From positions 1 through 45,867 of the IMG/VR virus record IMGVR_UViG_3300046000_004867: a DNA stretch of 45,867 nucleotides; one strand, 5' to 3'. This stretch comes from a virus (taxonomy: Duplodnaviria; Caudoviricetes). The notes under the pieces were generated by a model. That model searched no databases, was not told where the DNA came from, and saw nothing but the letters and a program-made list of their open reading frames with translations. Shown here one piece after another: positions 9,001-44,023 of the stretch (the stretch's first letter is position 1; each line of letters begins with the position of its first letter). A program made the position numbers and the translations under genes.

Positions 9001-10325
9001 ACACCAGGCAGTTGTGCCAGCACCTCGGGCGCCAGCTGGTTCAGCACCTCGGCGTCGACGTAGACATCGGTTGGCGCGCCTTCGGTCTGCGAGGCCATGT
9101 TCTGCACCAAGGTGCGGAACTCCTCGGGGTTGCGCTCGCGCAGCTTGGAGTTGGCGGCAGCCAGCATGGCGGCCTTCAGTTGTTCGGCGCCGGTGTCGGC
9201 TTGGCCTGCGTCGTAGGCGTCGCCCATCAAGCGCTTGGTGGCAGCCTCCACGCCCTTGGCGATCACGACATTGCCGCCGGTGCCCACCATCGTGGCGATC
9301 AGCGTCTGCACGAACGCGTTGGGGCGCTCGGCGATGTAGTCGGCGAACGGCTTCTCGGGGTTGAGCACCGCCCACTCGTTCAGGTCCTGCAGCACCGTGG
9401 CGACCTGCTCGCCCGGGATCTCGAGCGCCATCTGCTTGGCCAGGGTCTTCAGGATGTTGGTGCCGGCCTTCACGTCGCCGATCAGCTGGGCCAGTGGGAT
9501 CTTCTCGGTCGCGTACTCGATTGCTGCCTGGCTTGCTGCGAACGGCAGGGCCTGCGACATCGACAGGCCCTTCTCGCGTGCATCCTGGTAGGACTGGCCG
9601 CCGGTGAGGCTGACCATGCCCGCAAGCGCTGCGGGTTGACCGCCAGGCAGAAACGCGAACGGCAGCATCAAGGTGTTCTGCGTCAGGGACTGGATGCCCG
9701 ACTGGAACCCGCCCGACAACATGCCGTCGGTCTTGGGCGCCGCGGCCTTGGCCGTGCTGCCTGCAGCGTCGGCCTGCATCGCAAAGCCCTCAGCCAGGCG
9801 GCGCAGCGGGTTGCCACCGATCGCGGTGACCGACTCGAGTGGGTCGAGCACGGGCGCCACGAGCTCGAGGCCAGCACGGAACACGCCGGCTGCGCCCTTG
9901 CTTGCGTTGAACACGCCCGCCTTAGCCGAGCCGCCGGTGTCGACAAAGAACTGGCCAACGGTGGCTAACACCCCGCTGTCATCGTGCCCGAGCTTGGCGA
10001 AGTCCTCCGAGCTGTAGGCCTTCTGCAGTACCGGGTTGCCGGCTACATCGCGCTGGATTTTCTGCGCCTGCGCCTGCTGCGTAATGTTAGGAATGGACTG
10101 CGCAGCAAGCGGCGGCAGGCCGAGCGACTCGGCAGCCTTGCGCTGGGTGTTGTATGTATCTGGGTTGACCGCCACGGCACTTGTCAGTTGCGCGGCCATG
10201 GCCTGCTGTCGCTTGCGCTCCTGGTCGGCCAACATATCAAACGTGCTGTCGGTCACCAGCGTGGACGTGCCGGTGGCCCGCTGACGCTCTTGGTTGGCCA
10301 GCGATTGAAAGACGTTGTCATCCAT
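3033..10325 (-). CDS. Giant internal virion/ejection protein (2430 aa), polyvalent: LPD22-like, ART-PolyVal-like ADP-ribosyltransferase and HExxH metallopeptidase-like domains
   Basis: Size and synteny (largest internal-virion gene); PEFQNFFGDSKVVD..GKPLVVYHGT..GFYFS..VMPVYL..GYDGV..QIKSAIGNNG; STVHHEMAH..HEALAEGYE. Confidence 0.85.
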   Translation of the reverse strand: MDDNVFQSLANQERQRATGTSTLVTDSTFDMLADQERKRQQAMAAQLTSAVAVNPDTYNTQRKAAESLGLPPLAAQSIPNITQQAQAQKIQRDVAGNPVLQKAYSSEDFAKLGHDDSGVLATVGQFFVDTGGSAKAGVFNASKGAAGVFRAGLELVAPVLDPLESVTAIGGNPLRRLAEGFAMQADAAGSTAKAAAPKTDGMLSGGFQSGIQSLTQNTLMLPFAFLPGGQPAALAGMVSLTGGQSYQDAREKGLSMSQALPFAASQAAIEYATEKIPLAQLIGDVKAGTNILKTLAKQMALEIPGEQVATVLQDLNEWAVLNPEKPFADYIAERPNAFVQTLIATMVGTGGNVVIAKGVEAATKRLMGDAYDAGQADTGAEQLKAAMLAAANSKLRERNPEEFRTLVQNMASQTEGAPTDVYVDAEVLNQLAPEVLAQLPGVAAQMEAALAANDVVSIPMSDVLTVAPGTPLEAMLVENARIGDPSAMSQAEAKEAGSKAQEFLAQESERVIAQAVDQQAWQASHDAVKQTVLEQLNAVGRFRKEVNEGTATMFAAMYTTIAGERGITPEQAWAEDPITFTDKTGNGAVLNSAVDQTTTPEFQNFFGDSKVVDTEGKPLVVYHGTGESFDTFDINAPKNGVQLYGKGFYFSGESTYASGYARQGNQGGSTSGGNVMPVYLALKNPLTDPEEMAEIRSTVGGFKSAAIAAEIQRRGYDGVAMEVQGKPMYVAFNPAQIKSAIGNNGGFNPNDPNILKQENADLVAQHNLTAANLLHAVKMGGIPVPSLAVTNKAHPLTGFGEITLLAPSEMVDPQGYAASKVFGADIYSPRYPQITYELTPAKLKTLKAQFAEGEKATGATIQLDELEKRGADEMANSAAVMWQFLTEQGVTPNVKTKEGMTPGRLQRLKNFGFEKFFGDTDHQSLMRNDEFQKLVIAEQNDAYIGAGLDDLVVDYEDAKVNDWSRLMALSRNPAYEMAKVGKEAEPDGYATRDALRTQIRGELDTQFAAFVAQKFEALGAKEKIFQGFTDSGNRKYTPHTLENVVKILKKELRGGENFNYGVGSLRAKFTPQFKSLAQIRKAKDRLMDKAAFEAVKTEVDTELEGIADQLGLSLDQAIEVLEDAPKLGAAKAIERALKDYKRSDAPASEEAKVRVAEYLTRLRNLPTEYFEAKILRDVDLAEFKGAVVPEGVDPAVIKALNDRGVTDIRTYTPGSEDDRAAKINEFGHLFFQGPRGTFNPKVFELALNPDANLSTVHHEMAHAYLEILTRIAARPNPPAGLMANLDRFLQWQGIADLDTWNAMSLDQKRPHHEALAEGYEQYLLTGKAPSLELQPLMRKLKAFILNAYTSLKAFFEANPNVEQKLPTEMVQFYDRMLASEEQIKQAEGVAGLLPDEDATAEANEKLTARSLRDLKWSTNALNKEIKALQKQAAELRKGVEAEVRAEIDAMPEFAAKDALAKLKKEGPLADAQMESIAEVYGFTSVDEMLQAIAAVGNKAEVIEGKTDQRMLEEHGDLIDQKAIEQAALEAVHNEARARSLATELRSQAEMLNPRQDTGKTSTNGSKITVNAIVAAAKQFAANVVGRSKVIKLKALAAQHTAAERRAGKRWLEATAAGKTQDAVKAKQDQVLNNAAAKAALEAGNEVAKSIEYLKKFDKESVRKNLPPEYTDQIDKLLERVDLRVSVSGKEIDRRASLAKWIESQNALGIDPIIPEELMENIKLTSYKEMTVDELRDLILTVKHIEHIGRLKSRLLAAKDKREFGIIATEIADAIRANGGTVLPVQLEPDGKIKKFFKGAWADHRKLNSLVHQMDGKDNGFFYRALIAPMNERGTQENVGIEKATEALAKIYAPIEKLPGGISGAKLFIPEIRNSLSRAGRLSVALNWGNAQNRQRIMDGDAWTEAQVNAILATLTPVELQFVNDVWAHIDGYWPDIAAKQLRVSGVVEEKVEAEPFMLTASDGTQVQMRGGYYPIKYDSDRSLKAQKNESKQMAEDIMRGAVLRPTTRRSHTKARVEEVVGRPVRKDLSTITQHVNQVVHDLAWHEWTIDAIRLLNDPRIAGAIREHYGPEIHRAMTDTMEAIAVGNVAQQTSIDTLLLAMRSNVTRSIMGASLTTALMQPFGLTQSMARIGVMPVLKGAARWGGDAMRMENTVRWIQEKSEFMRLRGKTFNRELREISQRVNGKSKVMQIVDTSLFMLMQKMQMVADVPTWVGAYEKALAGGVDDDTAIALADEAVLASQGGGDTKDLSSVQRNLPFLTQFYSYFNTTLQLNIEATVRTDFKNPRAVAGWLGDMALLNVIPAILPALLTYALKGGDDDDPEKWAKRLAGWQASYLLGMFVGLRELPAVWSPFDYQGPPAGKLVNDGKRLVQQAGQGEIDDAAVLATIGFLGTALGLPTTQLVRSYKGWKAWDEGNAPATAVLFGPPPKD

Positions 10326-22265: not shown

Positions 22266-23861
22266 CTATTTGGCGTAAGCGTCAAAAAACGCCGTGATCT
22301 GTGACAGGAACGGGCTTATCGCAAAAGAGTGACCGCCTGTTGTCAGCGTGGAAGTCACAACCGGGCAAACACCTTGCATCTTTGGAATGAGCGCCAGAGC
22401 ATTTGCAGATGGCGTAACCGACACATCATCGGTAGGGGTGATGAACAGCATGGGCAGTTGCCGGAAGCTGTACTCTGGCAACAGGTTCGGGTCTTTGCCA
22501 GCGGTCTGCGTGGCGTAGTTGCCGCCGCTGATCCCGTAAGCGGAGGTTATGACGCCAGTGAACAGCGCGTTCGCGTAGTTCTCAGCCAAATTGGTGGTTG
22601 CGCTTGTTCCGACCCATGCAACGACGCCCGGAATCTTGTTCGCAGCCAGTGCATTCAGGCTTTCAATGCCGCCCATGCTGTTGGCAAACATGGCAACCGG
22701 CCCAATGGCGTAGTTGTCGCGCAGGAACTTGTATGCTGCGTAATAGGCATCCGTTGATGCTGCGTTACCCCATGTGGTTTTTGAGGCATTGAGGGCACAG
22801 GACAACACGATGTAGCCAGCGTTCACACACGCACGCTGGAGCGCCGAATAGTTGCCGTTGCTGATGAATGCCGTTTCGTCGGTGCCATTGCCGTGGAAGC
22901 ACATCACCACTGGCGTCGGCTTGCGGGAGTCGTATGCAGCGGGGAGGAACACCATCCAGCTTTGTGTGCCATCACCAGACCAGTGGATTGTCTTGGCAGC
23001 GCCTTCGCTGAAGGTGCGCGGGGCGATGGTTTGCAGCCCTTTGCGAGCCGAGCACAAGCCAACGGATTGACCCGTCAAAGCCCTTGCGTCAGAGTTGAAC
23101 AAGTACAGGTTGTTGACAGCGAACCCGGCACGGAGTCGGCGGCAGTACAACTCATTCGTTCCATCCGTCTTGCAGGCGACCACAGAAATATAGGTCTGAT
23201 CGACAGTGACAGTTACGATGTATGAACCGGCAGTAACAGCTTGTCCGGTAAGGGCAGTGGTCGCGCCGCTATCCATGCTCAACAAAGTCCCGACCACACC
23301 GCCACTGGTGTAAAGACCAAACGCATTTGCGCCAGCGGCTGCTGGTGCTGCACCAGCGGCATCCTTTGACACCCCGATAATCACGCCGCCACCTGCGGAA
23401 CCCGCTGGTATGGTCAACGCAAATACAGCCCGCAAGTTTTCATTAGCAGCCATGGCGAATGAATGGTTTTGACCTGACCCGCCGCCCTGAGTTGCGCCTG
23501 CAAATAGAGCGCCACCACTTACCTGACAAGGGTTTGCGCCCTGCGCCCAATTTGCCGAAGCGCTGGCCCATGCTTCAGTGAAGATGGTTGATGCTGTGTC
23601 CTCGTAACCAGCGCGGGACGATGCTACCGATGCGCTTTGCTCGGTCACTGCTTTGGCCTGCAAGCCGTAGAGGTTCGCCAGTGTCCCAGCAATGGCTGTT
23701 TGTGCTGCGGTTTGGGTGGATACGCCTAGCCCCCCGGTGAGGGGATCGGTTGCGTAGACAGGCACGCTGAACTCTTTACCGTCGCGTGCACGACGCACAC
23801 CGCTCGGGTCGCCCGTGGTCTCGTTCTCGAGCCACTGAAATCCGCCGGATACTTTGCTCAT
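22266..23861 (-). CDS. Alpha/beta-hydrolase (esterase) with beta-rich N-terminal domain
   Basis: VMCFHGNG oxyanion motif, ANSMGG nucleophile elbow, TDDVSV Asp and GGHS His. Confidence 0.8.
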   Translation of the reverse strand: MSKVSGGFQWLENETTGDPSGVRRARDGKEFSVPVYATDPLTGGLGVSTQTAAQTAIAGTLANLYGLQAKAVTEQSASVASSRAGYEDTASTIFTEAWASASANWAQGANPCQVSGGALFAGATQGGGSGQNHSFAMAANENLRAVFALTIPAGSAGGGVIIGVSKDAAGAAPAAAGANAFGLYTSGGVVGTLLSMDSGATTALTGQAVTAGSYIVTVTVDQTYISVVACKTDGTNELYCRRLRAGFAVNNLYLFNSDARALTGQSVGLCSARKGLQTIAPRTFSEGAAKTIHWSGDGTQSWMVFLPAAYDSRKPTPVVMCFHGNGTDETAFISNGNYSALQRACVNAGYIVLSCALNASKTTWGNAASTDAYYAAYKFLRDNYAIGPVAMFANSMGGIESLNALAANKIPGVVAWVGTSATTNLAENYANALFTGVITSAYGISGGNYATQTAGKDPNLLPEYSFRQLPMLFITPTDDVSVTPSANALALIPKMQGVCPVVTSTLTTGGHSFAISPFLSQITAFFDAYAK

Positions 23862-31401: not shown

Positions 31402-31484
31402 TCTGAGTCGCGCCCCGCCGACATCAGCGCCGAGGTGAAGAAGCCCAGGAAGAACCCGAGCCAAATACCGAAAAGCATGGTCAT
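31398..31484 (-). CDS. 28-aa membrane peptide MTMLFGIWLGFFLGFFTSALMSAGRDSE
   Basis: Manual translation; ATGA overlaps on both ends. Confidence 0.55.
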   Translation of the reverse strand: MTMLFGIWLGFFLGFFTSALMSAGRDSE

Positions 31485-31810
31485 ACGTCGAGCTCCATCT
31501 GGCGACTATCAACGATCGGGAAATCCGAGACCACGGCGCGCTGGCCCAGGCACTTGGCAGCGTACTGGCATGCACGGCAGGCCTCGCACAGATCCGTGCG
31601 GTAGACCTTGGGCAAGCGGCCCTTGCTGTGCTTGTGCATCTCCGCCGCGGCGCCCTCGATCTTGCCGGCCATCACGGCGCTGGCCTGGCGGTGGCCGCCG
31701 GCCAGCTGGTAGAGGTGCGCGCGGGAGGTCCCGGCTTTCTGCGCGAGGAGGGCCTGCTCGTCGGGCGTGGCCGCCGACATCCAGACCTGCATAGGGTGTA
31801 GGGTTTTCAT
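31481..31810 (-). CDS. Cro-like HTH regulator with C-terminal CxxCxxC motif
   Basis: QALLAQKAGTSRAHLYQLAGGHR HTH; divergent from repressor. Confidence 0.8.
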   Translation of the reverse strand: MKTLHPMQVWMSAATPDEQALLAQKAGTSRAHLYQLAGGHRQASAVMAGKIEGAAAEMHKHSKGRLPKVYRTDLCEACRACQYAAKCLGQRAVVSDFPIVDSRQMELDV

Positions 31811-31874
31811 GCGCAGTAGTTTAGCAGAGCGTAAGGCCATTGCACACCACGCTAAGGTTTGGTAGCGTTATTGG
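31811..31874. promoter_or_regulatory. Divergent switch region
   Basis: Plus strand TTGCAC-N17-TAGCGT (31840-31868) 6 nt before repressor ATG; minus strand TG-C-TAAACT 7 nt before cro ATG; TAGCAGAGCGTA operator-like site. Confidence 0.6.
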
Positions 31875-32291
31875 ATGCAATCCTCTGTGTATGAGACGCG
31901 CCGGGAGAACCTGCGCAAAATCCAGGTCGAGTGGGGTGGACCCACGTCGATGGCGAAGAAGCTCGGCCACAGCAATGGCTCCTACCTGGCCCAGCTCATC
32001 GGCCCCCACCCCAGCCGTGAGATCTCCGAGAAGGTCGCGCGCGAGATCGAGGCCAAGCTCTCACTGCCATTAGGTTGGCTCGATACGCCCCGCGGTGAAC
32101 AGGCCCGCAAGATCGACGACGACACCCTGGGCGAGTGCGCGGGGGCTGTGGCCGCTGCTGTTCGCGACGCAGGTCTCAAACCCGCCCCCAAAGTGTTCGG
32201 CGAACTGGTTACTCTGGCCTATGAGCACACCAAGCTCACGGGCAGAGTAGACGAGCCCTTCATCCAACGACTTGTGAGGCTTTTGAAATGA
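31875..32291 (+). CDS. CI-like HTH repressor (no S24 peptidase domain)
   Basis: RRENLR..GGPTSMAKKLGHSNGSYLAQL..ISEKVAREIEAKLSLPLGWLD. Confidence 0.85.
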   Translation: MQSSVYETRRENLRKIQVEWGGPTSMAKKLGHSNGSYLAQLIGPHPSREISEKVAREIEAKLSLPLGWLDTPRGEQARKIDDDTLGECAGAVAAAVRDAGLKPAPKVFGELVTLAYEHTKLTGRVDEPFIQRLVRLLK

Positions 32292-32501: not shown

Positions 32502-32531
32502 TTGCGTCATTGTTTTAGCATGTGCTACAAT
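32502..32531 (+). promoter_or_regulatory. Early promoter with palindromic operator TAGCATGTGCTA
   Basis: TTGCGT-N18-TACAAT with extended -10 TG; operator 32516-32527. Confidence 0.7.
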
Positions 32532-38526: not shown

Positions 38527-38816
38527 AGAAGCCACACCACCCAGGCATCCGCCTGGTGCTGCGCGATGCGCCTGAAGGTCTGACGGCATTGGAGCTGGCA
38601 GCCCGCATCCCAGACATGGACTACAACGCCGCGCGCCGTGCGTTGAATGGAATGCCTGACGCCTACATCGACCGCTGGATTCTGATGCCTGGCAGCCGTG
38701 GGCAATTCCAGGCGGTCTGGTGCGTCGTAACCCCACCGGACAACTGCCCGCACCCGAAGGACCGGTTCAAGGTCGAAGCGCGCACGCAGTGGGCACACCG
38801 GCACACCACGCTATGA
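38523..38816 (+). CDS. Hypothetical winged-HTH-like protein
   Basis: IRLVL..GLTALELA..MPDAYIDRW; coupled on both sides. Confidence 0.65.
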   Translation: MKKPHHPGIRLVLRDAPEGLTALELAARIPDMDYNAARRALNGMPDAYIDRWILMPGSRGQFQAVWCVVTPPDNCPHPKDRFKVEARTQWAHRHTTL

Positions 38817-40225
38817 GGCGCGAGTACATACCCCGGGCGTTTGCCCCGCTGGCCATGAATCATATGGTGAACAACCCACGGTGCGCATTGTGGGCGAAGC
38901 CGGGACTTGGCAAAACCTGCATGACCCTGACGTTCTTGGATTACTTGCACAACGTGTGGGGTGAAGACCGCCCGACGTTGGTGCTGGCCCCGCTGCGCGT
39001 TGCGCGTGACACCTGGGCCAACGAGGCGCACAAGTGGGGGCACCTCAAAAGCATCGAGGTTGTCCCGATTGTAGGCGACGTTGACCAGCGCCGCGCCGCA
39101 CTGCGCAAGGGCGCCCCGGTCTACACCACGAACTACGACAATTTGATCTGGCTGCGCGAGCAGTTCGAGGGCAAGGCCTGGCCATTCGCCACGGTGGTGG
39201 CCGATGAGAGCACCAAGCTCAAAGGCTTCCGCCTGCGCCAGGGCGGCGTGCGTGCGCAGGCCCTGGCCAAGGTTGCACACAAGGACGTCGAGCGCTGGAT
39301 CAACCTGACCGGTACGCCGGCCAGCAACGGACTCGAGGATCTGTGGGGCCAGACCTGGTTCCTGGATGCAGGCCAGCGCCTGGGCCGCACGTTCAGCGCG
39401 TTTCAGGACCGATGGTTCGGCATGCGCAACCGCAAGCACGAGGCCTCCGGTAAGACCTACACCGAGCGCTTCATATTCCCCGACGCGCAGGTCGAGATCC
39501 AGGACCGGCTGGCCGACATCTGCCTGACACTGGACCCTAAGGATTGGTTCGATCTCAAGGACCCGATCGTCAACGTGATCGAGGTCGAGCTGCCAGCCAG
39601 CGCCCGCTCGAAGTACCGCGAGATGGAGCGCGAGCTCTTCACCATGATCGAGGGCAACGAGGTCGAGGCGTTCAACGCCGCGGCCAAGTCGCAGAAGCTG
39701 CTGCAGATGTGCAATGGTGCCGTCTACCTGGACCCCGAGCGCTACGGTGCGGGCACCTGGGTGGAAGTGCACATGGAGAAGCTCGACGCGCTCGAGGAGC
39801 TGGCCGAGCAGACCGGCGACGAGCCGCTGCTGGTGGCCTACTACTTCAAGAGCGACCTGGCCCGCCTGCTGCGCCGCTTCCCCGACGCGCTGGACATCTC
39901 CACCGAGGCCGGCATGGCGGCCGCACAGGCAGGCCAGGGCAAGCTCTGGCTGGGCCACCCCGCCAGCGTGGGCCACGGTGTGGACGGCCTGCAGAAGTGG
40001 TGCCGCCAGATCGTGATCTTCGCCCAGGACTGGAACCTCGAGCACTTCGACCAGATCCTCGAGCGCATCGGCCCGATGCGCCAGTACCAGGAAGGCAAGG
40101 CGGTCGACGTGTTCATTCACCACATCGTCGCGCGCAACACGATCGACGAGTTGGTGATGGCCAGGCGCGAGTCCAAGCGCAGCGTGCAAGATTTATTATT
40201 GGAATTTTTGAAAGGCAAAAGATGA
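38813..40225 (+). CDS. SNF2-like SF2 helicase
   Basis: PGLGKT, VVADES, LTGTP, HPASVGHGVDGLQ, QILERIG. Confidence 0.92.
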   Translation: MRREYIPRAFAPLAMNHMVNNPRCALWAKPGLGKTCMTLTFLDYLHNVWGEDRPTLVLAPLRVARDTWANEAHKWGHLKSIEVVPIVGDVDQRRAALRKGAPVYTTNYDNLIWLREQFEGKAWPFATVVADESTKLKGFRLRQGGVRAQALAKVAHKDVERWINLTGTPASNGLEDLWGQTWFLDAGQRLGRTFSAFQDRWFGMRNRKHEASGKTYTERFIFPDAQVEIQDRLADICLTLDPKDWFDLKDPIVNVIEVELPASARSKYREMERELFTMIEGNEVEAFNAAAKSQKLLQMCNGAVYLDPERYGAGTWVEVHMEKLDALEELAEQTGDEPLLVAYYFKSDLARLLRRFPDALDISTEAGMAAAQAGQGKLWLGHPASVGHGVDGLQKWCRQIVIFAQDWNLEHFDQILERIGPMRQYQEGKAVDVFIHHIVARNTIDELVMARRESKRSVQDLLLEFLKGKR

Positions 40226-40817: not shown

Positions 40818-41008
40818 GCGACGACATCGACCGCGCACAGAATGAAGTCGAGCGCTCGCTTGGCGAGGCCCTGCGCTCGCGCAAAGTATCAGGCCCCTCG
40901 CCTACTGGGCGCTGCCTGTACTGCGACGACATCACCGGCGATGAGCAGCGCTGGTGCGATGCAGGCTGCCGAGACGCGTGGCAAGACTTGCCAACACATT
41001 TACGCTAG
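40814..41008 (+). CDS. TraR/DksA-like C4 zinc-finger protein
   Basis: N-terminal DDIDRA (DxxDxA) and CLYC..CDAGC. Confidence 0.75.
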   Translation: MSDDIDRAQNEVERSLGEALRSRKVSGPSPTGRCLYCDDITGDEQRWCDAGCRDAWQDLPTHLR

Positions 41009-41092
41009 TGCATCCTGCTCCGATCGCCACGCAGTGCGCGGGCGTTTTGAGCGGTAAGTTTCTCGTAAGTGTTGGGTGGCTTTACGTTTTTG

Positions 41093-41120
41093 TAAGGTCA
41101 CAATATACATTATGCGTCCC
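41093..41120 (-). other. dif-like Xer recombination site (putative attP)
   Basis: GGGACGCATAA-TGTATA-TTGTGACCTTA vs E. coli dif GGTGCGCATAA-TGTATA-TTATGTTAAAT: 9/11, 6/6, 4/11; intergenic. Confidence 0.8.
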
Positions 41121-41139
41121 ATTAGGGGGGTTATTGTCC

Positions 41140-41167
41140 TAGCACCTGCTAAAAGATGTGGTACTAT
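41140..41167 (+). promoter_or_regulatory. Operator TAGCACCTGCTA and extended -10 TGGTACTAT before methylase operon
   Basis: Matches the TAGCA-N2-TGCTA palindrome. Confidence 0.6.
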
Positions 41168-41198
41168 TCGCTACAGTAATTAACAGTTTAGGAACGAA

Positions 41199-42482
41199 AT
41201 GGGCTTCACTTTTGGTTCGGTTTGTAGTGGCATAGAGGCCGCCTCGGTTGCCTGGCACCCGCTGGGTTGGAGGGCTGCTTGGTTGGCCGAGATCGAACCG
41301 TTCCCCAGCGCCTTGCTGGCACACCATTACCCCGAGGTCCCGAACCTCGGCGACATGACACAGCTCCCCGAACAGATCGTCATGGGCCAGGTGCCCGCGC
41401 CCGATCTGCTCTGTGGTGGCACCCCCTGCCAGGCCTTCAGTGTGGCGGGATTGCGACAGTCACTCGACGATGCTCGCGGAAACCTTTCCTTAACCTTCTG
41501 CGAGATCGCAAATGCCATCGACCTATCAAGAGCCCATGACGGGCAACAACCCTGCATCGTCTTCTGGGAGAACGTCCCCGGAGTCCTCAACACCAAGGAC
41601 AACGCCTTCGGCTGCTTCCTTGCTGGCCTTGCCGGCGAAGATGATGCGCTCGTCCCAGCAGGGGACAAATGGCCGAACGCTGGTGCTGTGTTTGGCCCCC
41701 AAAGAGCAGTCGCGTGGCGCGTCCTCGACGCCCAATACTTCGGAGTGGCCCAACGACGCCGCCGTGTGTTCGTTGTCGCAAGTGCTCGAGACGACATCGA
41801 TCCCGCCGCAATTCTTTTTGAGTTCGAGGGCGTGCGAAGGGATTCTGCGCCGAGCCGCGGGGCGCGGGAAACAGCTCCCACCATCCCTAGCCGCAGCACT
41901 GCAGGCGGTGGCCTCGGTACAGACTTCGACTGCGATGGCGGCCTGATCGCTGGGACGCTGCTCAAGGGTGGGCACAGCAACAACCCCCTGGACGAGACCC
42001 TGGTGGCGCACACGCTCACCAGCAACGGCGACGCACACAGCGGCTACCGCGACGAGAAGGGGCTGATCGCCTTCCACCACAACGCCCAGGTGGACCAGAT
42101 GAACTTTGACCCGAACACCAGTGCACCTCTGACGTGTTCGCAGCAGGCCGCGGTGGCTTGGTCAATCATGCCGATGAACAGCGGCAAGGATTACAAGGCG
42201 CGGGAAACCGACATCGCCCAGCCGATCATGGCGGGCGGGCCAGTGGGCGGTAACCAGGGGGGCGACTTCATCACGCAGTCGGCCATGCAAGTGCGCCGCC
42301 TCACCCCCCGCGAGTGTGAGCGCCTGCAAGGCTTCCCTGACGATTACACGCTGGTGCCCAACCGTGGCAAGCCTGCCGCCGATGGCCCGCGCTACAAGGC
42401 GCTGGGCAACTCCTGGGCGGTGCCGAACGTGCGCTGGATCGGCTGGCGTATTGCGTCCCAGGTGTTCGGGGATTTAGCATGA
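41199..42482 (+). CDS. C5 cytosine DNA methyltransferase
   Basis: CSGIEA (I), GGTPCQ (IV), ENV (VI), QRRRR (VIII), RRLTPRECERLQGFPD (IX), ALGNS (X). Confidence 0.95.
   Translation: MGFTFGSVCSGIEAASVAWHPLGWRAAWLAEIEPFPSALLAHHYPEVPNLGDMTQLPEQIVMGQVPAPDLLCGGTPCQAFSVAGLRQSLDDARGNLSLTFCEIANAIDLSRAHDGQQPCIVFWENVPGVLNTKDNAFGCFLAGLAGEDDALVPAGDKWPNAGAVFGPQRAVAWRVLDAQYFGVAQRRRRVFVVASARDDIDPAAILFEFEGVRRDSAPSRGARETAPTIPSRSTAGGGLGTDFDCDGGLIAGTLLKGGHSNNPLDETLVAHTLTSNGDAHSGYRDEKGLIAFHHNAQVDQMNFDPNTSAPLTCSQQAAVAWSIMPMNSGKDYKARETDIAQPIMAGGPVGGNQGGDFITQSAMQVRRLTPRECERLQGFPDDYTLVPNRGKPAADGPRYKALGNSWAVPNVRWIGWRIASQVFGDLA
41512..41946 (+). CDS. Nested +1-frame ORF, methyltransferase beta-subunit-like
   Basis: NTSEWPNDAAVCSLSQVLET..FFLS..GILRRA..RGKQLP resembles, from memory, the alternative-frame beta chain of M.EcoHK31I; start uncertain. 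Confidence 0.65.
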   Translation: MPSTYQEPMTGNNPASSSGRTSPESSTPRTTPSAASLLALPAKMMRSSQQGTNGRTLVLCLAPKEQSRGASSTPNTSEWPNDAAVCSLSQVLETTSIPPQFFLSSRACEGILRRAAGRGKQLPPSLAAALQAVASVQTSTAMAA

Positions 42483-42621
42483 AGGCTTTAGCAACGCTTG
42501 CACCAACCCAGTGCAAAAGCCATTTAACAATGTTCAATACAAAGCGTACCACCCCGTGTGCAGGAATCCCCCACCAACCCCTTGGGCTGCAAGGCCTTAA
42601 CTACTTGAAAGAATCGTGATT

Positions 42622-42825
42622 ATGCGCACCTTGTTTGAACCCTATCCAGACCGCCTGCGCATCGCCGACGGCAAGCTCTACATGGCCGACGGCAGCAGCG
42701 TGCGCAAGTACCTGCGTGAGTGGCAGGCCAGCCAGAAGATCGGCGTAGACGAGCCTCTTGTTCTGCAGCTGCGCAGCCAGGGCGAGCAGGTGCGCCGCCT
42801 TGCCTCATTCAGTTTGGTGGCGTGA
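42622..42825 (+). CDS. Hypothetical protein
   Basis: 67-aa ORF beginning MRT. Confidence 0.55.
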   Translation: MRTLFEPYPDRLRIADGKLYMADGSSVRKYLREWQASQKIGVDEPLVLQLRSQGEQVRRLASFSLVA

Positions 42826-42989
42826 TGAAATACGTCGGCTACACCTTCGTAACCCTAGCGATAGCTGGGTGGTTCAACCTCATCGACTTTCATGTGTGCG
42901 TGAAGGGTCCAGGCGAGTGTGGCCCTCACGCCTGCGCTCGTGCAGCAAGCACACCCCAACCCCCCGCCCCCTCAACAAAAACTCAATGA
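42825..42989 (+). CDS. Small protein with hydrophobic N-terminus
   Basis: TGATG-coupled; MKYVGYTFVTLAIAGWF. Confidence 0.45.
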   Translation: MKYVGYTFVTLAIAGWFNLIDFHVCVKGPGECGPHACARAASTPQPPAPSTKTQ

Positions 42990-43012
42990 ACGGAAGAACG
43001 ATTATGCGGACC
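42949..43012 (+). repeat. 64-bp degenerate direct repeat, copy 1
   Basis: 47/64 ungapped identity with 43365-43428 (counted by hand). Confidence 0.75.
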
Positions 43013-43363
43013 ATCATTGCCGGTAGCCGCGGGCTTACGCACCAGGCGATCGTAGACCAGGCTGTAGAGCTGTCTGGCTTCGTGGTCAGTGAGGTTGTGA
43101 GCGGCACCGCTCAAGGCGTTGATGCGCTGGGCGAAAGCTGGGCGATGGCGCGCGGCCTGCCGATCGTGGAGTTCCCGGCCAAGTGGATCGGCCCGCGGGG
43201 TCTGGACCGCGGCGCAGGCCACGCCAGAAACCAGCTGATGGCGAACTACGCCGAGGCCCTGGTAGCAGTGTGGGACGGCAGCAGTCCCGGCACCCGCGAC
43301 ATGATCAAGCGCGCGACCAAGCGTGGGCTCGCTGTCTTCGTCTACGACACGAGCCTTGCGTGA
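43004..43363 (+). CDS. SLOG-family (DUF2493/YspA-like) protein
   Basis: IIAGSR..VVSGTAQGVD..FPAKW..AGHARNQLM..WDGSSPGTRDMI. Confidence 0.85.
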   Translation: MRTIIAGSRGLTHQAIVDQAVELSGFVVSEVVSGTAQGVDALGESWAMARGLPIVEFPAKWIGPRGLDRGAGHARNQLMANYAEALVAVWDGSSPGTRDMIKRATKRGLAVFVYDTSLA

Positions 43364-43364
43364 T

Positions 43365-43428
43365 GCACGCCCCAACCCCCTGCCCTCTCAACGATTCAAC
43401 CATGAACGGAACCCACCTTATGCGTACC
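43365..43428 (+). repeat. 64-bp degenerate direct repeat, copy 2
   Basis: Matches 42949-43012; the pair flanks the SLOG gene. Confidence 0.75.
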
Positions 43429-43617
43429 AAGACCTTGACCACGCAGCTGCCCCCACTGCCAGAGCCCGAGGCACTGGGTATGGACTTCGACAAAGGCTGG
43501 GATGGCGTCCGTGCCTACGGCTACACCGAGGCGCAGATGCAGGCCTACGCTCTGCAGGCGCTGCGTGAGGCTGGCGTCTGGGTCCACCCCACTGCGTCGA
43601 GCGCAGCTCGTGCTTGA
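43420..43617 (+). CDS. Hypothetical protein
   Basis: LPPLPEP..YTEAQMQAYA motif common in small phage proteins. Confidence 0.6.
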   Translation: MRTKTLTTQLPPLPEPEALGMDFDKGWDGVRAYGYTEAQMQAYALQALREAGVWVHPTASSAARA

Positions 43618-44023
43618 GATAAACAAGATCCCAGGCCGGGACCTGCGTGCCCTGGTCGAGCTGATCGGGGAGCGGCGCATCGAGCGCGAGCTCAACGTCC
43701 ACCGCACCACCATCCGGCGCTGGTTGAGTGGGCAAATCAAAATCCCCGGCGCCCAGCACATCGCCATCAAGGCGCTGCTCGGGGATTTGCCAGGTACGGC
43801 GAACCAGTGGACCGGGTGGCGGTTCCATGATGGGCTGCTGTACAGCCCCGCCGGCGACCGCTATCGGTCGGGCGAGGTGCTCGCCATCGGGTTGAATCGC
43901 CAGATCTACAACGAGCTCGCGCGCGAGGTGCGCGACCTTAAAGCCAAACTGCAGACCGCCGAGCTCGCGCTCGAGCACCTGACCGAGGCGCCCTTAGCCC
44001 TGCCCCATCACGCCGACAGGTAG
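43610..44023 (+). CDS. HTH + DUF3653 protein, XafT-like Xer activation factor candidate
   Basis: RIERELNVHRTTIRRWLSG HTH followed by WTGWRFHDGLLYSPAGDRY (DUF3653-type W.GW.F..G.L.SP.G) and a coiled coil; start (GTG 43610) uncertain. Confidence 0.72.
   Translation: MLEINKIPGRDLRALVELIGERRIERELNVHRTTIRRWLSGQIKIPGAQHIAIKALLGDLPGTANQWTGWRFHDGLLYSPAGDRYRSGEVLAIGLNRQIYNELAREVRDLKAKLQTAELALEHLTEAPLALPHHADR

Follow-up and report, generated by a model that had tools for sequence, protein, structure and literature searches.

A dif-like site and a DUF3653 gene in the integrase slot of a BPP-1-like freshwater phage: a candidate module for Xer-dependent lysogeny

How might a tailed phage that has a cro/cI-like switch but no integrase of its own establish lysogeny? 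The question is raised by the IMG/VR virus record IMGVR_UViG_3300046000_004867 (Duplodnaviria; Caudoviricetes), whose full 45,867 nucleotides we call the window, and in particular by positions 41,093 to 44,023, where a site resembling dif, which serves to unlink bacterial chromosomes, is followed by a gene for a helix-turn-helix (HTH) protein with a DUF3653 domain. An earlier note on this DNA had proposed that the phage uses host XerC/XerD plus its own activator in place of an integrase and lysogenises at dif, a reading that our analysis supports in part. We find that this freshwater relative of Bordetella phage BPP-1 carries the dif-like site and the HTH-DUF3653 gene in place of an integrase, that the two are conserved together as a real TLC-type att/Xaf (Xer activation factor) module in a clade of BPP-1-like phages, and that close kin carry an excisionase-integrase (xis-int) pair in the same slot. 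From these observations we infer integration itself: the phage likely lysogenises through the predicted activator and host XerC/XerD at chromosomal dif, with a probability of about 0.72.

The site, the gene and the phage that carries them

The elements on which the proposal depends are the following.
41093 to 41120, minus strand: dif-like attP candidate (XerC arm 41110-41120, core 41104-41109, XerD arm 41093-41103)
41121 to 41198, plus strand: promoter-like stretch that follows the XerC arm and includes a 12-bp palindrome (41140-41151)
43610 to 44023, plus strand: HTH-DUF3653-long helix protein of 137 residues, a predicted Xaf (Pfam, hhalign, AlphaFold model)

The site reads GGGACGCATAA TGTATA TTGTGACCTTA on the minus strand and is intergenic. 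Compared with dif of Escherichia coli K-12, from which the host's dif may differ, it matches 9 of 11 positions in the XerC arm, 6 of 6 in the core and 4 of 11 in the XerD arm, and this degenerate arm retains T1, T2, T4 and G5; the position, placement and match counts given in the earlier note were all reproduced. The window contains a single match of at least 15 of the 17 positions of XerC arm and core, whereas 100 dinucleotide-shuffled versions average 0.01. Core TGTATA is also that of several published betaproteobacterial dif sites (PMC2731167), and XafT, the activator of the TLC-phi satellite, integrates nearly any attP that keeps base 1 or 5 of the XerD arm, whereas FtsK needs a near-canonical arm (Miele et al., PMC9226527). 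Judged against E. coli and betaproteobacterial dif, the window site therefore has both the 11-6-11 layout of integrative mobile elements that exploit Xer (IMEXs) and the combination of homologous core and degenerate XerD arm seen in TLC-type sites. The 12-bp palindrome recurs at 32516, 32884 and 37550, three intergenic sites of the early region, stands behind the XerC arm in 26 of 30 loci, and is probably operator-like; a sigma-70 scan did not score the promoter proposed here.

Open reading frame (ORF) 43610-44023 matches Pfam DUF3653 at 22.7 bits (cut-off 22.4; E = 1.1e-4). Pfam did not call an HTH in its product, and that assignment comes from an AlphaFold model (mean confidence, pLDDT, 85) that has a long helix at its C terminus besides four short helices and a small beta unit, from weak Foldseek matches to XRE-type HTH proteins, and from the alignment to XafT; no PDB sequence match to the protein was found. 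A profile of 70 sequences spanning HTH and DUF3653 aligns by hhalign to P15 of phage NO16, its closest named homolog (probability 96, E = 3.6e-9), to the VC1465-like protein of TLC-Kn1, i.e., XafT (91, E = 9.8e-7), and to ORF136/XafV of VGJ (87, E = 3.7e-6). The HMM match above cut-off and these homologies bear out the earlier call of a DUF3653 protein. As for its being "XafT-like," homology to XafT holds, but the protein is as close to NO16 P15 and XafV and has a single DUF3653 unit, not the HTH plus two DUF3653 stretches in about 190 residues of a strict XafT ortholog; with one stretch to XafT's two, we class it as a member of the Xaf family rather than as that ortholog. Its position near the candidate attP is as in TLC-type elements, and DUF3653 is found mostly beside dif (Midonet et al., who define XafT; PMC6744903). 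We identified 234 homologs at E <= 0.001; the 120 of them that were listed all lie on contigs shorter than 47 kb, one of which carries the label Rubrivivax sp.

The window is a complete circular genome of 45.7 kb (127-bp terminal overlap; direct terminal repeats, 100% complete) with no recognizable recombinase. None of its proteins matches PF00589 or PF00239, and a PHROGs search of 150 six-frame ORFs of at least 110 residues returned no integration family among the best five families per ORF. Searches of the window for ParA-type AAA_31 and for ParB_N, the partition genes expected of a plasmid-like prophage, were likewise empty, and we found no tRNA, no plasmid match to the phage and no Rfam match. 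A divergent gene pair occupies the position of cro/cI in BPP-1, so that completeness, the lack of recombinase and par genes, and the presence of a switch all agree with what had been noted before.
31481 to 31840, minus strand: cro-like gene (PHROGs)
31875 to 32291, plus strand: repressor-like gene, matching repressor families in PHROGs (E = 6e-13)

The best-scoring cultured relatives include BPP-1 and BcepC6B, with PolA 53-55% identical to both and the portal 55% identical to that of BPP-1. A BPP-1-type portal, PolA, D5 primase and SNF2 helicase are present in conserved order, and homology suggests a short-tailed particle. Between the portal and head genes, a stretch of lower GC (0.55) holds a 531-residue gene (22266-23861) that is without a Pfam match and looks esterase-like by eye at the C terminus of its product.

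Conservation of the module and its alternation with an integrase

We retrieved 53 viral and 35 metagenome loci by profile, which after removal of two small non-tailed elements and addition of the window gave 87 loci, 61 of them non-redundant. Of these, 51/61 have the site, in the same orientation, upstream of the DUF3653 gene, and two loci with variant cores bring the total to 53/61; the other 8 have less than 1.5 kb of upstream sequence. The 28-mer is thus conserved in relatives, on which the earlier note had made its proposal depend. The site-to-start-codon distance is 48-49 bp in 18 loci, and 49 of the 51 have a core identical to that of dif at all 6 bp. Because sites were chosen on the XerC arm and core alone, the XerD arm provides an independent test: among the 51 loci G5 is kept in 50, T4 in 46, T2 in 42 and T1 in 32, whereas positions 6-11 match dif in only 3-7. 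These loci are related, so the counts are not independent events. Variant cores TAGATA, TACATA, TGATAA and TATATA (in L049, L082, L013 and L060/L062, respectively) may track different host dif sites and could help predict hosts.

Members outside the clade were also recovered. L119, a 42-kb tailed phage with a different replication module, has the site and the DUF3653 gene just ahead of its lysis genes; its site precedes the match at 10001 by 59 bp. The module thus extends beyond BPP-1-like phages. L120 (3896-5012), a rolling-circle element resembling filamentous phages, has a dif-like site within its repressor gene followed by a DUF3653 gene of 37% identity; elements of this type are a possible donor pool for the module.

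The strongest evidence that site and gene serve lysogeny comes from the slot in which they lie, bounded on its left by the helicase gene.
38720 to 40225, plus strand: SNF2 helicase, at the left border of the slot occupied by xis-int in BPP-1 and BcepC6B

BPP-1 (Rauchvirus) and Burkholderia phage BcepC6B (Ryyoungvirus) have the same gene order as the window phage but carry a tyrosine integrase, and neither site nor DUF3653 gene, between helicase and lysis genes (BPP-1 also has an annotated excisionase), precisely where the window holds its dif-like site and Xaf gene. Among relatives carrying the gene, PF00589 was found in 0/19 (15 of them at least 90% complete), and PF00239 and AAA_31 were absent from 20/20 genomes, so that these relatives, like the window, show the IMEX trait of having no recombinase of their own. 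We further sampled 42 loci by helicase, without conditioning on the gene; 24 have at least 64% helicase identity, and leaving out 7 with less than 3 kb downstream yields 17 informative close relatives. Thirteen have site and gene (one partial), two have the site only, and two have an integrase without site or gene. The latter are near-identical contigs with a small PrtN/xis-like gene and a tyrosine integrase, and in the helicase tree their lineage branches from within the clade (100/100). Since site/gene and xis-int alternate in one slot, we interpret the former as most likely a lysogeny module. A more distant group (L166-L174; 51-52% helicase identity) has neither site, gene nor tyrosine integrase in the slot and is possibly strictly lytic.

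Tandem units and additional dif-like sites

Beyond the earlier note, we found tandem copies of the site around cargo genes, three extra dif-like sites and a covarying stem-loop in the XerD arm. Of the 51 loci, 9 repeat XerC arm plus core, with two or three copies each; these delimit units of 426-1438 bp that have in common a promoter-like start and, for the majority, a conserved end of about 130-180 bp, and that differ in their cargo (N6/N4 methyltransferases, Dam, Mom, an exonuclease). The left flank of the first copy matches that of single-site phages (0.60-1.0, 8 loci), compared with 0.30-0.42 for inner copies, and the flanks switch at the core, as expected if circles with their own XerD arm had inserted there. 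Xer-mediated insertion of these units is reasonably probable; small gene circles with the same core would likely insert at the phage site by the reaction proposed for the phage itself, giving the tandem units of the relatives. Related membrane genes of the Vut_1 family (L051:8595-9772 and L050:4470-4958) occur as cargo in two settings, once each: a same-core unit and a position behind a variant-core site left of attP.

In the window, the genes between the site and the Xaf gene are punctuated by three further sites.
41199 to 42482, plus strand: C5-cytosine DNA methyltransferase (PF00145, E = 1e-37), the first cargo gene
42603 to 42630, minus strand: second dif-like site (XerC arm 11/11, core TCACGA, XerD arm 7/11), whose XerC arm contains the ATG of ORF 42622-42825
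42985 to 43012, minus strand: third dif-like site (XerC arm 10/11, core TCGTTC, XerD arm 7/11), containing both the stop codon of ORF 42825-42989 and the ATG that opens a SLOG/YspA-family gene (43004-43363)
43401 to 43428, minus strand: fourth dif-like site (XerC arm 10/11, core GGTGGG, XerD arm 6/11), containing the ATG of ORF 43420-43617, which overlaps the Xaf gene start

Three such matches, with near-perfect XerC arms and XerD arms of 6-7/11, have a chance expectation of 0.02. Across loci a selection of at least 8/11 in the XerC arm and at least 5/11 in the XerD arm, at 6-bp spacing, gives 24 extra sites in 175 kb near the gene versus 1 in 1.32 Mb elsewhere, with XerC arms of 8-11/11, XerD arms of 5-8/11 and G5 in 21/24. 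An ORF starts at an ATG inside the XerC arm in 23/24, and these ORFs are without mutual BLASTP similarity. Motifs related to a nearly invariant palindrome outside the attP candidate precede these cassette sites, and a scan for the upstream motif, which includes no dif letters, was followed by such a site in 11 of 13 matches.
41008 to 41020, strand not assigned: short palindrome lying some 75 bp beyond the XerD arm and almost unchanged across 44 aligned loci

That the three extra sites are Xer substrates has somewhat less than an even chance. Slightly favored is that they are stop/ribosome-binding/start junctions between accessory genes exchanged by homologous recombination: the XerD-like arm often gives the upstream stop, as the XerC-like arm gives the ATG, the cores differ from one another and from dif, and the same junction turns up twice in the accessory run of G023 (L138), a circular 64-kb phage among the upstream-motif matches that encodes a tyrosine integrase of its own and has neither DUF3653 nor an attP-type site. 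Such junctions alone leave unexplained the match of both arms to dif at exact 6-bp spacing, the retention of G5, the concentration near the gene and the predictive value of the upstream motif. We rejected attC as their identity, as they form no hairpin, and the window has neither IntI nor any other tyrosine recombinase. Acinetobacter pdif modules and integron cassette arrays likewise bound accessory genes by recombinase-type sites with variable cores, but the window sites are all direct repeats on a phage, beside an attP candidate and an activator gene, without attC-like hairpins or IntI. Tentatively, and with the odds against it, the whole may form a system in which a tailed-phage clade integrates at dif via host XerCD and its own activator, while attP also serves as an integron-like platform for small cassettes that Xer inserts in tandem upstream of the activator gene, on its attP side (DNA methyltransferases, Mom, nucleases, SLOG), some of them promoterless and supplied by the junction with stop, ribosome-binding site and start.

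How the phage would integrate, and what else the module could be

Known elements suggest how the module would act. TLC-phi of Vibrio cholerae, with XafT (VC1465), has an attP with a good XerC arm, a dif-homologous core and a degenerate XerD arm keeping bases 1 and 5, as here (PMC6744903, PMC9226527), an adjacent HTH-DUF3653 gene homologous by hhalign, and no integrase. It differs in being a small rolling-circle satellite, whereas the window phage is an autonomous 46-kb tailed double-stranded DNA (dsDNA) phage with PolA, primase and lysis genes, and its XafT has two DUF3653 stretches in 194 residues; the stem-loop and cassette arrays have no counterpart in the TLC passages compared. By analogy with TLC-phi, XerC would bind the good arm of the circularized phage, the activator would help build the synapse and switch on XerD without FtsK, and the fully homologous core would permit a complete crossover. 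With a degenerate XerD arm at the prophage junction, a poor substrate for FtsK, the lysogen would be stable until the activator is made again. More tentatively, since the palindrome of the activator promoter is common to other early promoters, the phage repressor might silence the activator in the lysogen.

The module is known from inoviruses and jelly-roll phages, including dif-type and int-type variants (Ma and Zhang, PMC12715192; Kalatzis et al., PMC9966536), and filamentous cases of Xer integration have been listed (PMC4471427). The double jelly-roll phages of dif type (NO16, with its P15/P16 module) resemble the window phage in being dsDNA phages with a lytic cycle, a dif-like attP and a single-DUF3653 protein, and in that dif-type and int-type variants coexist within one group; they are non-tailed, about 10 kb, infect Vibrio and have documented prophages at dif, whereas none was found for the window clade. 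In the literature searched, mostly without subscription papers, we found no tailed phage integrating via host XerCD, only non-tailed ones. Gokushoviruses, too, integrate at dif.

For the clade itself, no search returned an integrated copy or a hybrid junction. A GTDB scan with alignment gave two weak matches in unrelated metagenome-assembled genomes, hybrid-junction patterns occurred 0 times in metagenomes and 0 times in viral contigs, and a looser pattern hit 23 loci, none of the clade. The 35 metagenome loci include no integrated member, none of 211 non-control sequences compared has a canonical XerD arm, and 30 loci with the phage-type XerD arm show no host flank within 60 bases after the site. 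In X1, the sole sequencing run containing the phage and possibly its source sample, a single contig runs through the intact site; drops in depth across the cassettes in that run were traced to foreign contigs of low depth, not to variants. No RNA dataset holding the phage is listed. Because most of the records look like assemblies of free virus, missing prophages are weak evidence against integration. The scans also returned G047 (L225), an unrelated 36.5-kb provirus record (1-36485) with lysis and tail-like genes that begins at a canonical dif (site 11-38), has a ParB_N domain and no PF00589, PF00239 or Xaf match, and is possibly another tailed prophage at dif. In the phage-like contigs L231, L232 (G048, G049) and L228 (G050), a canonical dif lies in the interior, adjoining a terminase-like gene in L231/L232 and close to a primase in L228; PF00589 is not matched in G048 or G050.

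Besides the missing prophages, several observations weigh against lysogeny by this route. The DUF3653 gene was not seen in three site-bearing genomes, G021 (complete), G022 and L145 (partial), and L164 holds only part of it; G021 and G022 show no integrase or resolvase either. In the window itself the Pfam match is barely above cut-off and there is one DUF3653 unit in 137 residues against XafT's two stretches, while the core, compared with E. coli and published betaproteobacterial dif, may not be the host's. Furthermore, a stem-loop constrains the XerD arm, so that part of the arm's conservation, including G5, may stem from pairing.
41076 to 41101, plus strand: stem-loop, covarying across relatives, with its right arm formed by the outer 9 bases of the XerD arm

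Upstream of the XerD arm lies an inverted copy with which it pairs in 47/51 loci on the plus strand and 41/51 on the minus strand. In an alignment of 44 loci the share of cells that pair is 74%, compared with 66.6% after shuffling (0/500) and 32-46% after sliding, and G.T outnumbers A.C on the plus strand (34 vs 13). RNAalifold did not recover the stem, returning only the short upstream palindrome, and the fold of the single sequence is not significant (z = -1.46). A poly-U terminator at the stem was rejected as there is no U tract, nor was one returned by the scan that covered sigma-70 promoters.

This stem bears on a variant nested within the proposed reading, in which the same host enzymes act on the same target by an XafV-like pathway, with a XerC-first single exchange resolved by replication and a substrate possibly shaped by the stem-loop. 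XafV of the filamentous single-stranded DNA phage VGJ-phi, which follows a XerC-first pathway, is a 136-residue homolog beside attP, as in the window, and boosts only XerC-initiated reactions (Moranchel et al., bioRxiv 10.64898/2026.06.12.731946). The length and single DUF3653 unit of the window protein, the pairing in 47/51 loci and the G.T excess suit such a pathway; the near-universal core identity with dif and the kept G5 are as for a full XerD-first crossover, RNAalifold missed the stem, and the stem leaves core and XerC arm unpaired, in which it is unlike the CTX attP. We consider this variant unlikely. Quite improbable is that there is no integration at all, the phage persisting as a circle or being purely lytic, with site and activator resolving genome multimers in the manner of cer/psi and swapping cargo. 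All clade members found are indeed in free form, the conserved palindromes outside the XerD arm resemble accessory sequences, and tandem same-core units show recombination at the phage site with or without integration. The absence of Par genes, a core identical to the common proteobacterial dif core, which self-resolution does not require, and alternation with xis-int in one slot argue otherwise. Very improbable, and less probable still, is a reading in which the 28-mer serves regulation, as operator, promoter or RNA hairpin, or is a relic, its likeness to dif being non-functional, and in which the HTH protein is an ordinary transcription regulator. The site does adjoin a promoter-like region and a stem-loop, three genomes have the site without the gene, and P15/XafT is called a transcriptional regulator by Ma and Zhang (PMC12715192). 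Against this stand the 15/17 matches where 0.01 were expected, a site near-invariant across a diverse clade, the location of DUF3653 genes generally beside dif sites (PMC6744903), and the variant cores of L049 and L082, which change jointly with the XerC arm while the XerD-side stem stays.

If the phage does lysogenise through its activator and host XerC/XerD, Xer hijacking, in the shape of a module exchangeable with xis-int, would no longer stop at filamentous, microvirus, jelly-roll and satellite elements but take in ordinary tailed dsDNA phages as well, and lifestyle calls based on integrases would score such phages as lytic. A 46-kb prophage at dif that withstands FtsK but can still be excised would put the XafT model to the test beyond Vibrio, and the 234 natural homologs with their paired sites are material for mapping how DUF3653 activates Xer. 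The tandem units suggest that Xer also loads DNA-modification genes onto the phage.

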